This document shows, piece by piece, positions 51,701-57,700 of a DNA stretch of 64,000 nucleotides. Position 1 is the stretch's first letter, and each line of letters starts with the position of its first letter. Source of the DNA: Schmidtea nova (taxonomy: Eukaryota); contig CM097883.1 in the NCBI GenBank assembly GCA_044892505.1, positions 48,422,001-48,486,000 of the forward strand, written 5' to 3'. The notes beneath the pieces are model-generated. The model saw nothing but the letters and a program-made list of their open reading frames with translations. It made no database searches and was not told the origin of the DNA. A program made the translations under genes and the position numbers.

Positions 51701-54700
51701 AGCAAATATGTGTTTCGAGAAGAAGATAAAACCACGGTTAGAATATGAGAAAGGACGAATCTTACGAGGAAATCTAAATTCCATGATAGAACAAATCATC
51801 CCACAAATCAAAAAACATAGAAAGGAGTTAATGAGAAGCGAATACGAAAAGTTGAAACGATGTATCGAGTGCATACGTGACACAAGTCACACGAGATGGT
51901 CACAGATCTCATACGGAAAAGTAATTGCCAAAATGGGAAAAGCAATGTTCAGACAAGGGAAAATAACAGATCTGAAAATTGCAGTAGAGTTACCTAATGA
52001 GGATACCAAAGAAATTGAAGTGGTAGCAGATTGTACCATAAAAGAATTAGTAAATGTCATCAACGAGACACTATTACAAAGAGAACCAGAAGAAGAATGG
52101 GAAGATGACATAATCATGAAATACAACGAACATGTATTATGGGATCACGATGAAAGACGGCTATATAAAATTGGTATATGGGATAATCACCAAACCATCC
52201 ACGTTATCAGAATGGACGATACACCAAGAGAAACTGCTAAGGATGAGAAAAGAGAACGGGAACGACAAAAAGAAGTTGTGCATAAATTACAACAAATAGT
52301 AGACATTTATCGAAATTGGCGGATTTGGCCAGAATGGGAAGATGTATTAGAAGAACTCAATCTCAACAGACGATTACGAACACCTGTAGAAAAACAATGG
52401 AACGAACGAGGAAAATGTTGGGAACCAAAAGCAGGCGAATACGAAGAAGAATATGAAATAAGCATAGAAGACGATCACAAACCGGAAACCGGAAGAGTCT
52501 GTATGGTAACAAGAAAAGCCATGCCAGCGGATTTAGACGGACCAGAAACGACAACCATGTGGTTGGAAAGAGAGAAACAAAAAACGGAAGAATTTGTCGA
52601 AATATTAAAAACCAATGCGCACGGCAAGAGAAAAGTAGTAAAAGGTCTCGCAGATTTTTTCGTAGTTAATGGAGAAGACATAACATGCTTGCGTAAAGTA
52701 GCAAAAGCAATCGCCGAATACAAAAGAGTTAACGAGTGGTGTCCAGAACAATTGGATCACGTAATTAAAAAATGGAGAAACCAAGAATTCTCGCAGGAAT
52801 CGCCACAGAAAGTACACCTAAGAATAGTATATCCGAACCAGGAAAAGGAAGAGTTTTGGGTAGGAATAGCGGAGAAAGTTCGAGACATTAAAAAGAAATT
52901 GAGATACGAACCACCATTCCATTTACAACACCAAGGACGATCATTGGATAACAGCTTAGAAATTGGAATAACGCCAGCGCAATTAGATATCGTAAATACA
53001 TTGACAGTGGCAGCAATAGCAGGCCAACCATTAAAATTGAAAGAGGAAAAGAAACCAAAAGGAAGTATGAGTACGCCGAGCCCAATGAAATCGGTAAGGA
53101 CTCCAGGAACAAGCTCAGAACAAGCTAGAACAACACCAAGAGAGACAAGAGAAAGAACACCACCAGAACCATACGATGTAGACGAAATTTTTACAGATAG
53201 CGATGATATGTTAGAGGAGTTAATAGAGCTAACAAAAGAGAAGGATGATAATATTTTCGAAAGAATTCAAGAATTACCAACAGCAATACCGGTAACCAAC
53301 ACCGAAGATGAAGTTGAACAAGAAATAATCATCGAAGAAGTAAATGAAATAGCAGAAGAGGAAGCAAGGAGGGCAAATGTAGAAAACGTACAATTCACAC
53401 AAGAAATGGAAAGATGGTTAGAAGAAAGAGCCAATGAACCAAGAGACGTCACAGAAGAAACTGGACGAGAAACAAGATTAGTAGAAACGGGCACGACAAT
53501 GGATAAACGACCTAGAGGTAGACCCAAGATGGATCCAGCAAATGTAGTTATAAAATCAAGAGAGGAAAAAAGACGGGATCAATGGGATTTGTGTCTAAAG
53601 AAACTAAATAAAATAGCCGAAACGAAAGAAAAAGAAACAACACAAACATACCAAGGCGAAGAATGGATATCAAAGATGTTAATGGAAATACTGGCAATAA
53701 TCGATCCAGAATTAAAGAAATGGTGGAGAATAAACGAAATAAGCGAAAGGGCGAAATCACTGCATAGCGCCATCGCACCAATCCTACCAGAACTAATAAA
53801 AGAGAAGACAAGGTCAAACCACCTAGATTGGCAAGGAACCACGATGTTGATAAAGAAGTTAACGGAAGGAGCAGAGACGGATAACAAATATTTAATAGCT
53901 ATGGCATACACCATTTACAATCTGCTGACACTGAGTAGAGGTCGACTGAAACCCACAGCACTTGAAAGACATATAAAGAATACAGCCAAAATTATAGAGA
54001 AGGAAATAGAACCGTACATCATCAGTAAAGGAGGATGGGAAACATTCACAAAAACGAACCAAAAGAAAAACCAAGCCAAAAATATGAAAAGGAAATTCGA
54101 AGAGATATTGGGAGAATTGGAAAAGGAAAAGTCGGGAACAGGAAACGGGAAATCATCACTAAACTTGAGTTCTATTATTATGATGATGTTAATATGGATG
54201 ATTAGTACTGACGGAGCAACAGCATTTGAAGTATTCGATTGTGATCAAATGGCATTAGGTGAGAAATATTCACTACGAGGGACAGAACAATGTAAGGACG
54301 CAACCCCAACGGAGCTAAAAACATTAAAAAAGAGACAATTATACCACGTATATCAGGAAGCTGAACTGATAAGAACAATGGTCAGAGAATGCAAAGTTTA
54401 TAAAACCAGATTTGCTTTTTATTGTGGGCACCGCCATTATTCAGCAATCGTGATGCCAGGAACGGAAAGAGAATCGGTAATGCTGCAAGGAGAAGACTGT
54501 GAAAAATTATTTAAACATGGGGAAGTAGAGACTAGAGATAGAGTAAAGATAAGAGGAAAAACGGGAGTGATATTGCAACAAACATATTATGTAGCAGGAG
54601 CTATTACGGGAGGAGAAGGGTACTGCCAAGGAGCAACATATCCAATATTCGGAGTAGCAGCAACAAACCTAGTGGTAATAGATACCTATACAGTAGAATT

Positions 54701-57700
54701 AAAAACGTACGAGGCATTCTTCGACCCAACAACGGGAGAAATGAAAACCCTGCCCATGTGCAAAATCGAGTCAAACACTTGCCAAACCGGTATGTCAACC
54801 TTAACCTACCAGATACGAGGAAAGGAATGTCAACTACAACTGTTAAAGGAAGCAGAATTCGATGAGATACAAGGGAAAACCTTCCAAGAGGAAGAAGAAG
54901 ACGAGGCAGCAAGAGGAAAAATACTTCAAGACACCGTACGGGGAGAGAAAAAGATTGAAACCCGAACACAAGAAAAGCAAATCAAAATGAGAAATACACC
55001 AACGGTACTAATTACCTCAGATGCAGATATCGGAATGAGGTTTGTAAAAGGAAAAACAGCTTTGAAATGCGGAGTAGCCATGTTGGAAACCAACTACCCC
55101 GGCATTTTTGTATCAAAACAAGAAGTACCTAGTGCGAAACGCAAAGTGCACACGAACGATGTTAAATTACACCTGTACATGAACAATAAAATGGATTTTC
55201 TATTCCATAGAGGACAAGCGTCACTACAAAAAGTGTATTACGATTTAATAAATAACGATTGTATATTAAATAGGGAAATATTAAAGACAAAACTAGCAGT
55301 AGCAATCACAAACCCGGATAGTGCAATGCCACTATTACCATTAAGAGAAGGTCATTTTGGAAGAGTAGTCGGAGAGGTCATGTACGTATACATATGTAAA
55401 AAGACAAATGCGAAGGTAGCGACAATGACAAAACTACAACCAGGTCAGTGTACTAACGAACTAGAAATCGAATATAAAGGGAAAGTAAGATATGTACAAC
55501 CAGTGACAAGAATCATAAATCCAGTAAGTTTCGAACCAAACCCTTTCAATTGTAGCAACGCATATGGACCACTATACCAAAAACCAGACGGAAATTGGGT
55601 TATGTTTCCGTCAAGAACAGAGGTACCAGCACCAAGGGAATTTGAATTGATGCAACTATCAAAAGGGCGAAAATTCAAAGACGTAGATGTAAGTAATATG
55701 GGATTCTATAGCGCAAAAGACTTAGAGGCAGCGAGACAAAACATACTATTTCCAGCAAGAAGGGAAGCGGTGTTATCCAGCATTGTAACAATAACAGGAG
55801 GAACAAATTACCAAGGTGGACCAAATTACGAATTATTATTGTCACCAGCCCACTTTAAGAAGGCAACGGAAAACATGATGAAAGCGATGTGGGGAAGATT
55901 TTTAATATTTGGACAAATGATGGCAGGAATACTTGGTGTTATACTAATTATACAAATAATACGGGTAATAATAACGCAAATGTTAGCCTGTTTTGACATC
56001 TATAAACGAGAAAAGAAAGTAAATTGGAAATTGGTGGTAGGATTCTTACCATTTCTGGCTAAAACAATGGTATTACACGGTCATTCAAAAGATATTCACC
56101 GAATAAAGAGACTCCTAAAAATACTGGCAAAAATGAAAGGAACCGACGAAGAGGTGGGACGAAAATTTAAAAAGATAATGAATAACGAGCAAGCAAGACA
56201 ACAACTAAAGAAAGAGAGAAAAGGACTATGGGAAAGAATGAAAGGGTACAGAACCCAAGACGATTCCAGTGACGACGATGATGATGATAACGAAGGAGGT
56301 CAAGTATTTAAAAATCAAGTACCACAGTATGTCGAAAAGAATCCAGCGGAAATGTGGAAATGTTACGCACCCCCACCAACCATGTACCAAGAACCAACAC
56401 CAGGGATGAGACAAAATACAATGCAAATGATGCCGATGACAAACATATATCCTATGATACCAGAAGACTATAGAACGAGACGGTGCAGAAGCGTAGATCC
56501 GCAAGGAGACTCACATACAATTGCAGTAATGTCATCAAACACCGGTCCAGTATTAACTACAACAATCGAAATTAACGGAAGGGAAATAGAAGCGATGATT
56601 GATACAGGAGCAAATATCTCAGCAATAGATATAAAATGGATACCACAAGAACAAAGACGGGATATCGAGAGAACCAACGTTCATGTAATAGCATGCAGTA
56701 AAGAAGTAGTAGAAGTTGCCGGAAGATGGTGGGTGAAGATAAAACATCAAAACACAGAAATCGAAACGTACGTAGCAGTAATACCAGCACTGAGCGTACC
56801 ATGCATTATAGGCACAGATTTAATGCCAGCATTATTTAAAGAAATAGTTATTGATCTCGGAACAATGAGACTAAAGGACAGGACAGGACAGATATGCGCA
56901 ATAGAAGCAAAAGTAACAAGTTCGAAACAAATAATCGTACCAGCACGGAGAGAGAAAATATGTTTCGTAAAAATAGATCCTACAATAGAAGGTGACATGA
57001 TCTTTGAACCCAGTAAAAGATTTGAAAAGAGAAAGTCGTTGCCAATGGCAAGAGGATTAGTGAGTGCGAATGACAACGGAGAAATCCCAATAAATGTAGT
57101 AAATTTCGATGAAGAGGATAAAATAATTTATGAAAATGAAAGATTAGGTAAACTAACTCCAATGATGGATATCGAAATACCAATAAAAGAAGGAGTAAAA
57201 GAGGAGGAACCCACTTGGAACATTGATAGCCAACTATTAAATGAGGATCAAAAGAAACAGCTAGAAAGATTACTGATAGAGTACAAAGACATATTCGCAG
57301 CATCCGATCTAGACCTGGGGACATGCGACGTCACACTACACACGATTCCACTAACAGACGAAACGCCGATTGCTTTAAGACCATACAAGTTAGCTGAAGC
57401 GCAAAAATCAGTAGCAGAAGCAGAGGTACAGAAAATGCTAGACGCAGAAGTAATTGAACCAAGCTGCTCACCGTGGCAATTCCCAGTTGTAATGGTGAAA
57501 AAGAAAGACGGAACACAACGATTTTGTATTGATTATCGGAGATTAAATGCGGTAACAAAACGGGATACATACCCATTACCGGACATCAACGAGATGTTAT
57601 TGACATTACAAGGAGCGGCATATTTTACATCATTGGATTTGAAAAGCGGATACTGGCAAATTAAAATGAAGGAGGAAGACAAAGAGAAAACTGCTTTCAC

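Follow-up and report, generated by a model that had tools for sequence, protein, structure and literature searches.

A gB-like envelope segment between Gag and protease in a giant, probably Burro-type element of Schmidtea nova, and the membrane topology predicted for its polyprotein

The stretch of DNA analyzed here, indicated in the following as "the window", consists of 64,000 nucleotides from Schmidtea nova (assembly GCA_044892505.1, contig CM097883.1, positions 48,422,001 to 48,486,000, forward strand), and contains a giant Ty3/gypsy element bounded by long terminal repeats (LTRs), in which an envelope (env) segment lies in frame between gag and pol. The element is probably of the Burro type, with an env that specifies a predicted class III fusogen, produced within a polyprotein that would be threaded into the endoplasmic reticulum (ER) and cross its membrane four times. 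A single open reading frame (ORF) encodes, in this order, Gag, a linker, a Bcl-2-like domain, a signal peptide (signal 1), a gB-like ectodomain, a membrane span (span 1), a tail, protease (PR), reverse transcriptase (RT), RNase H (RH), integrase (IN), ankyrin repeats, a second signal peptide (signal 2), four FN3-like repeats and a second span (span 2). The general layout, an in-frame gB-like env in a giant element, had been pointed out in a preliminary description of the window; it is already known, since it is in print for Burro (2019; PMC6431247) and for gB-type GAG-ENV-POL elements (2026; PMC13524379). What is added here to the published layout is the predicted four-crossing topology and a likely second cell-surface protein at the end of the polyprotein. 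Features and coordinates are reported in Table 1.

The region 54159-56620 is free of stops and shares the frame of the 5,140-codon polyprotein ORF, with zinc knuckles upstream and PR, RT, RNase H and IN downstream; an in-frame position between gag and protease had been stated in the preliminary description. The likeness of its product to chuvirus glycoproteins (G) and to herpesvirus gB, first proposed from the letters alone, is borne out by profile search and structure prediction. Env matches PF24664 (Monjiviricetes_fusion) with E 1.4e-71, and a profile built on Env reaches gB by sequence too, gB giving its best hits (E 3e-4). The AlphaFold model of the ectodomain, built from a 132-sequence alignment, has a mean predicted local distance difference test score (pLDDT) of 90.6 and a predicted template modelling score (pTM) of 0.74. 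Every PDB fold match listed for Env is a herpesvirus gB (best E 1.1e-13, template modelling score, TM-score, about 0.44), while the matches in a viral library are led by G proteins of chuviruses, xinmoviruses and related viruses (best E 2.5e-37, TM-score up to 0.71). All 14 cysteines of the ectodomain are near-invariant across 117 sequences. On the strength of model and profiles, the ectodomain has a class III glycoprotein fold of the gB/chuviral-G type, and Env is a predicted membrane-fusion protein.

The carrier has the features of Ty3/gypsy elements: LTRs, a target-site duplication, a tRNA primer site, the order PR-RT-RH-IN, a Gag with CCHC knuckles and an integrase with a GPY tail. Its RT finds the Ty3 RT as top PDB chain (E 6e-87), ahead of all others. 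The element is 28,479 bp (28.5 kb) long and is flanked by a 4 bp duplication, ATTG; its two LTRs show 6 differences, and its primer-binding site matches tRNA-Pro(TGG) genes of the same genome (G000). When this genome was searched with the env protein, 86 of 3,445 candidates were scored: all 86 match env, and in 33 of them the match is stop-free and lies in an open frame of at least 5,067 codons, exactly 5,140 in 23 cases (hand count). Env is found at the expected distance in 40 out of 40 gag-anchored places (scored among 434 candidates, coordinates compared by hand), and upstream of the protease in all 30 protease-anchored loci inspected, out of 40 scored and 908 candidates. The preliminary description had let its case hinge on other full-length copies, and in those of this family the segment is present. 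With at least 86 copies, the env segment is neither a chance occurrence nor an assembly slip, and the element of the window is a young, multicopy member of Ty3/gypsy (Metaviridae).

Four membrane-associated segments, as read from hydropathy and sequence patterns, set the predicted topology. Signal 1 ends three residues ahead of a conserved [AGV][YF]DC in 18 of the 18 sequences shown; in the window and in several relatives it trails a BH2-like motif at approximately the distance of a Bcl-2 tail anchor, and one relative, P0006, matches PF00452 (Bcl-2) at E 9.6e-4. Span 1 has a hydropathy of 1.8-2.6 in 16 out of 16 sequences, and is followed by a basic linker. A stretch resembling signal 2 comes after integrase and ankyrins in all seven sequences that extend that far. 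Signal 2 and a C-terminal hydrophobic stretch are also found in a sister family and in families of 3,401 and 3,393 codons of the same genome, as well as in P0002, P0008 and P0013 (the terminal span being unclear in P0013); the sequences of the second ectodomain differ among the families that share this layout.

Between signal 2 and span 2, repeat 4, the only one folded, reaches a pLDDT of 77.5 and a best Z of 8.4 to FNIII domains; nearly all of the top 50 rows of its structure search are FN3 (Foldseek best E 3.9e-3). Compared with Pfam, the second ectodomain gives Fn3_ELFN at E 0.07, and single repeats match no FN3 family; among 3,070 candidates of 265-846 residues, no homologue of the second ectodomain was found at E 0.01. 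The structural matches lend moderate support to the assignment, and repeat 4 is likely an FN3 beta-sandwich. Four residues of the region are invariant, three of them Cys. Because these cysteines and seven N-glycosylation sequons lie between signal 2 and span 2, the FN3 region would be lumenal; Pol would therefore be cytosolic, an odd number of spans following Env. The polyprotein would then probably pass through the membrane four times, with a second, likely cell-surface protein at its end; this topology, as predicted, implies that Gag and Pol are both cytosolic and membrane-tethered, Pol at both ends and Gag via signal 1. The location of Pol on a cytosolic Env tail, already suggested in the preliminary description, is the most likely one, given one span after Env and a lumenal FN3 region.

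A weaker hydrophobic stretch, at 56025-56081, is also present in stand-alone chuviral-type G. Should it span the membrane as well, the full-length product would have its tail and Pol in the lumen, and both would have to be made another way. The conservation of the stretch and its hydropathy of 1.4-1.7 in some relatives speak for such a second crossing, which is nevertheless very improbable: the stretch is much weaker than span 1, has a central Pro, charged residues and, in the window copy, basic flanks; such a crossing would turn signal 2, and the FN3 region with its many Cys and sequons, the wrong way round, and the tail bears motifs of a cytosolic type. The stretch probably lies on the cytosolic side of the membrane, as a re-entrant or amphipathic segment.

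The tail motif singled out in the preliminary description as loosely late-domain-like, YAPPPTMY, was rejected, as it is not PPxY; the conserved motif of the tail is IYPMI. PPxY, P[ST]AP, YPxL and LYP do not occur anywhere in the window ORF. The counterpart of IYPMI is LYPII in the sister family, and in two other families PTAP stands beside [IV]YP. Of the 15 in-frame tails, 12 carry hydrophobic-YP, a pattern picked after viewing the data (shuffle mean 1.5), 3 carry P[TS]AP (0.09) and 1 carries PPxY (0.4). For the tails of stand-alone G proteins (P0031-P0151) the corresponding figures are 21 out of 93 for P[TS]AP (shuffle mean 1.1), 13 out of 93 for [LM]YPx[LI] (0.15) and 9 out of 93 for PPxY (3.1). 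Hydrophobic-YP/LYPxL and P[TS]AP are taken by us to be late-domain patterns of the ALIX and TSG101 type, respectively. Motifs of the P[TS]AP and LYPxL kind are enriched in both sets of tails. YPMI also fits a tyrosine sorting signal; under either reading the tail would be cytosolic.

The following course of events is proposed for the element. Signal 1 would start translocation and be cut by signal peptidase; retained in the membrane, it would anchor the Gag/Bcl-2 half, doubling as the tail anchor of the Bcl-2-like domain. Span 1 would halt transfer, leaving Pol as a cytosolic loop between Env and signal 2, while signal 2 and span 2 would give another type I glycoprotein, which is a candidate for attachment. 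Env would trimerise, and the motif in its tail (IYPMI, or LYP or PTAP in relatives) would recruit the endosomal sorting complexes required for transport (ESCRT) or sorting adaptors. Budding particles would take along Gag and Pol, both held at the membrane; the enzymes would afterwards be released by the protease of the element. The particles might fuse with another cell, putatively a stem or germ cell.

Selection on env was evaluated in 30 copies picked by protease DNA, which are 96.4-99.9% alike. Variants shared in the C-terminal half of Env comprise 53 synonymous and 2 replacement changes, with a ratio of replacement to synonymous polymorphism (pN/pS) of 0.01 (0.024 for RT). Between the window family and the sister family, Env has a corresponding ratio of substitutions (dN/dS) of 0.08 and the second ectodomain one of 0.26, at a dS near saturation. 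An earlier env count of 674 synonymous to 8 replacement changes was discarded, because protein identity had been the basis for choosing its loci. Purifying selection on env is strong, Env being as constrained as RT, and yet env is dispensable in cis in the sister family. That the env segment could be a passenger, a relic or an assembly chimera finds some ground in its loss from part of the sister family, and is hardly credible: this is refuted by the copy counts (at least 86) and by the selection test (pN/pS 0.01), and the same layout recurs in three other families of the genome and in unnamed public proteins.

The sister family, whose protein is 72% identical to that of the window family, has amplified four forms (L105-L119, L057-L058, L075-L097 and L120-L123 in G000), each in several to many copies. 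The full form has 5,115 and 5,147 codons. A form devoid of RT and IN derives from one 3,018-nt deletion, spanned by 40 out of 40 scored matches. In the env-less forms the deletion takes out linker, Bcl-2-like domain, Env and tail motif; of the 23 matches that span it, 11 continue into RT and 12 are also without RT. The LTR pairs of four env-less, RT-bearing copies are 99.3-99.96% alike. One env-less copy (L108-L110) lies next to microsatellite sequence that extends for at least 6 kb.

Junctions of the deletion forms are shared, in frame and with microhomology. The env-less junction, having 7 nt of microhomology and no GT-AG ends, has the look of template switching; for the same reasons, an origin of env-less and RT-less copies as retrotransposed spliced RNAs was rejected. 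Pol variants limited to env-less copies amount to 46 synonymous and 13 replacement, and 29 variants are common with env-bearing copies: because of the latter, autonomy of the env-less forms is not separable from recombination. The data point to recombination between sister forms, and env-less forms may multiply within the cell, or use Env supplied in trans. A skip that removes only env found no match among 15 of 24 contig joints shown, a result silent on expression and splicing; these joints come from four runs of one study, of unspecified kind and kept as contigs, covering all 30 bins.

Two alternatives have to be weighed against these data. According to the first, Env is made and folded, while Pol reaches particles through a spliced or processed gag-pol RNA, the Env-Pol fusion being a by-product. 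The odd 1:1:1 stoichiometry of a single ORF speaks for it, and Gag joined straight to PR-RT-IN does work in env-less copies; the template-switching look of their junction and the conservation of signal 1, span 1 and tail, all three, make this route quite unlikely. According to the second, no infectious free particles are formed, and Env acts as a scaffold on the membrane during assembly, or brings about fusion between adjacent cells, through which cores pass directly. The multiplication of env-less copies agrees with this, as do copies 96-99.9% alike, which fit spread inside a host lineage, and fusion loops that are not plainly hydrophobic; a full class III ectodomain is kept, however, with its 14 near-invariant Cys, together with budding-type tail motifs common with viral G and with a second ectodomain held under selection (dN/dS 0.26), and particle-free spread is considered unlikely.

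Several observations weigh against the preferred reading, that of a fusogen within an ER-threaded polyprotein with four crossings. A single in-frame deletion of 5,385 nt, spanned by 23 of 40 scored sister matches, removes env, and intact ORFs of 3,329-3,341 codons are found in 5 out of 5 env-less, RT-bearing copies, picked among open-frame ones. One ORF delivers Gag, Env and Pol at 1:1:1, unlike retroviruses. The two likely fusion-loop regions, located by alignment only, are His/Gly-rich, variable and not plainly hydrophobic. The topology is a prediction from hydropathy and patterns, and a conserved hydrophobic stretch of 11 residues at about 62694-62732, between FN3-like repeats 1 and 2, does not fit it neatly. 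The shuffle tests on tail motifs overstate significance, because related sequences are not independent. Finally, part of the purifying selection on Env could come from quality control in the ER, exerted on the Pol that is joined to it. As env-less Gag-PR-RT-IN copies have multiplied in the sister family, the tether between Env and Pol is seen as a convenience, not a requirement; the coupling of Pol packaging suggested in the preliminary description is not supported as an obligatory one, in view of these amplified copies with intact Gag-PR-RT-IN. Env-less derivatives multiply also in the case of intracisternal A-particle (IAP) elements and Drosophila errantiviruses.

The origin of Env was addressed with a midpoint-rooted FastTree of ectodomains (117 rows by 603 columns, after removal of fragments and of one duplicate; most references unnamed). 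The window Env falls with 20 others into one clade of 21, with support 0.999, while the next node has support 0.37. For 15 of the 21 members a protease or RT motif is found in the same protein; the remaining six are truncated. The in-frame Envs are about 4.1-4.3 substitutions per site away from a named chuvirus G (P0032) and from a G linked to DUF5641 (P0063), a domain which we take as a link to BEL/Pao elements. They appear to form a deep clade of their own with no supported sister, from which neither a donor nor a recent capture can be read; a recent independent capture from a chuvirus is thus not shown, where an independent capture by a Gypsy lineage had been suggested at first. An ancient origin of gB-type env is argued in the accessible text of Chary and Hayashi 2026 (PMC13524379). 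Among the relatives, P0002, P0003, P0004, P0007, P0010 and P0018 feature two or three aspartic-protease-like domains after Env, and P0002 a further one after integrase; P0008, an Env-Pol polyprotein of this family, has been deposited under a bacterial metagenome bin as a hypothetical protein, and likely stems from animal DNA in that bin.

Table 1. Features of the element in the window. Positions are counted from the first letter of the window.
Feature	Position	Strand	Remarks
5' LTR	42937..46214	+	3,278 bp, TG...CA ends
Primer-binding site	46221..46238	+	complementary to tRNA-Pro(TGG) 3' end, 6 nt past LTR
Accessory ORF, C3HC4 RING finger	46540..47004	+	PF13920 E 1.5e-11
Polyprotein ORF	48720..64000, running 139 bases past window	+	5,140 codons stop to stop; first Met 49179
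Gag capsid/nucleocapsid region	49179..50042	+	PF00098 E 2.7e-7, 2 stretches; three CCHC knuckles by reading sequence
Bcl-2-like domain, weak evidence alone	53682..54089	+	BH2-like motif 54006; Bcl-xL chains E 0.9-1.7
Internal signal peptide 1, predicted	54153..54221	+	hydropathy and pattern
Class III fusogen ectodomain, predicted, chuviral G/herpes gB-like	54222..55916	+	14 Cys; a single N-glycosylation sequon; furin motif absent
Membrane span 1, predicted stop-transfer	55917..55979	+	mean hydropathy 2.57
Second, weaker hydrophobic stretch	56025..56081	+	hydropathy 0.8-1.7; basic on both flanks in window copy
Env tail/spacer	56082..56516	+	YAPPPTMY 56364; conserved IYPMI 56445
Aspartic protease	56517..56909	+	DTG at 56601; PF00077 E 1.9e-8
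dUTPase-like stretch, putative	after protease		label from PMC6431247 and by eye
Reverse transcriptase and RNase H	57495..58547	+	YIDD at 57816; PF00078 E 8e-38, PF17917 E 3e-37
Integrase	58872..59850	+	H2C2, core, GPY motif
Ankyrin repeats	60252..60521	+	best stretch, PF12796 E 5.7e-14; second stretch further down
Internal signal peptide 2, predicted	62187..62249	+	hydropathy and pattern
Second ectodomain, four FN3-like repeats	62250..63665	+	7 N-glycosylation sequons
FN3-like repeats 1 to 4	62250-62516, 62733-63014, 63018-63299, 63384-63665	+	
Membrane span 2, predicted	63900..63968	+	hydropathy 2.78; then a tail of about 57 residues
3' LTR	68138-71415, past window end		

Further features surround the polyprotein. 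Within it, the motif N-M-[ML]-R occurs four times (50313, 50451, 51111 and 60003), only in predicted cytosolic parts and once directly after IN, and is kept in the sister family; none of 2,000 shuffles reaches three occurrences, for a motif picked after viewing the sequence. These are likely cleavage sites of the element's own protease. The tail of Env is split by a 20-kb insertion in one full-length copy (L060-L062). Downstream of the polyprotein, an accessory ORF (L021:689-2095) is TRAF-like, with zinc fingers and a MATH domain (PF22486 E 5e-21), and is followed by ORFs of 368 and 197 amino acids (aa) of no known family (L021:2172-3275 and 3340-3930). ORFs are also present within the LTR, at 44221-44748 and 45059-45654 in the window; a 1-bp difference, found in the 5' LTR but not in the other, splits one of them. 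Tandem repeats, with units of 30/31 bp and of about 43 bp, lie in the leader that runs from the RING ORF to gag (47418-48220). The tRNA-Pro(TGG) that serves as primer is encoded in a long tandem array with a 308-bp unit (L124, G000:C1 near 459.61 Mb), the pattern having 1,105 matches genome-wide. Apart from this element, the window holds a smaller one at 37142-40707, also of the LTR kind; its 92-bp repeats are identical, and its ORFs resemble gag and RT.

Taken together, the data allow a wider, tentative proposal, whose chances of being right as a whole we put somewhat short of even. Burro-type elements would be enveloped and infectious, with a polyprotein built like the structural one of RNA viruses, which would pass the ER membrane four times and give rise to a gB-like fusogen and a second, FN3-based attachment glycoprotein. 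Gag would sit on the Env signal/Bcl-2 anchor, and Pol would be tied between the two glycoproteins; the signal for budding would reside in the tail of Env instead of in Gag, as a legacy of the viral G. Forms that lack env or RT would recombine with the full form and ride on it, like defective viral genomes. The predicted topology explains how Pol can come after Env, and a place for the budding signal of these viruses and elements is suggested by the late-domain-like motifs that occur in tails of chuviral-type G. The presence of full, env-less, RT-less and doubly deleted forms of one family in one genome is a natural experiment on the purpose of env. How gB-type errantiviruses without gH, gL or gD enter cells is called unknown in the accessible text of PMC13524379: an FN3-like membrane protein, closing the same polyprotein, would be a concrete candidate entry partner for the gB-type Env.

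As for published elements, Burro is among the closest. In the accessible text of Arkhipova and Yushenova 2019 (PMC6431247), the planarian Burro carries env in frame between gag and pol, and its one ORF is ordered as Gag, BCL2-like, env, PR, dUTPase-like, RT, RH, IN and ankyrins. The Burro-like element of a second planarian is described there with an ORF of 5,140 aa, two CCHC knuckles and a TRAF/MATH ORF upstream. Burro/GYPSM1 and the element of the window share the general dimensions (25-30 kb, long LTRs and an ORF of about 4,900-5,100 aa, compared with 28,479 bp and 5,140 codons), a BCL2-like domain (weak here) before env and env before PR, ankyrins and a MATH/TRAF accessory ORF. The window element differs from the published 5,140-aa element by its three CCHC knuckles and its downstream TRAF/MATH ORF; because of these two differences, identity of the two is not shown. 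A BIR domain, a Burro trait, found no match in the ORFs scanned, a set that does not take in every small ORF; a RING ORF is present. Class III or gB likeness, topology, second signal, FN3 repeats and deletion forms do not appear in the accessible part of the Burro text (PMC6431247).

The second group to be compared is that of the gB-type GAG-ENV-POL 'errantiviruses', reported, in the accessible text of PMC13524379, from Platyhelminthes, Nematoda and Bryozoa, gB-type env being the only one there; gypsy elements with chuvirus-like glycoproteins are reported also from arthropods. These elements, too, are multicopy and intact, with a Ty3/gypsy pol preceded by a gB-type env, and the six Schmidtea env domain I-II sequences given in that source resemble ours by eye, with the same Cys pattern, sequences 5 and 6 most of all. 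An in-frame polyprotein and Burro are not discussed, and no second glycoprotein is seen, in the accessible text (PMC13524379). Our search, with figures, Repbase notes and some supplements outside it, found no published account of the second signal, the FN3 repeats and terminal span, or the four-crossing topology; nor, within the same limits and including the accessible text of PMC11410931, of late-domain-like motifs in these tails or of a family with four forms.

The window Env shares with chuviral and other Monjiviricetes G the Pfam family, the fold (best TM-score 0.71), the Cys set, the membrane-proximal region and the tail motifs. Nematode endogenous retroviruses reportedly have a continuous gag-env-pro-pol ORF, in hosts and with accessory genes other than those found here. 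For these elements, env before pol in a metavirus is recorded by Sacco et al. 2022, as cited in the accessible text of PMC13524379. Chuviral G and the mosquito BEL/Pao glycoproteins (Dezordi 2020, accessible part) are about 20% identical to the window Env, and each is the product of a stand-alone ORF, with a signal peptide at its N-terminus. In the window the carrier is a Ty3/gypsy element, and not BEL/Pao as for the mosquito glycoproteins, and the in-frame Envs lie in a separate clade. Herpesvirus gB is more distant, at 10-13% identity and a TM-score of about 0.44; it needs gH/gL and a receptor-binding partner. In the window element, the FN3-like protein is a candidate partner. Finally, the structural polyproteins of alphaviruses and flaviviruses also use internal signal peptides to alternate cytosolic and lumenal parts; their sequences are unrelated to the one described here, in which the replication enzymes are placed between two glycoproteins.

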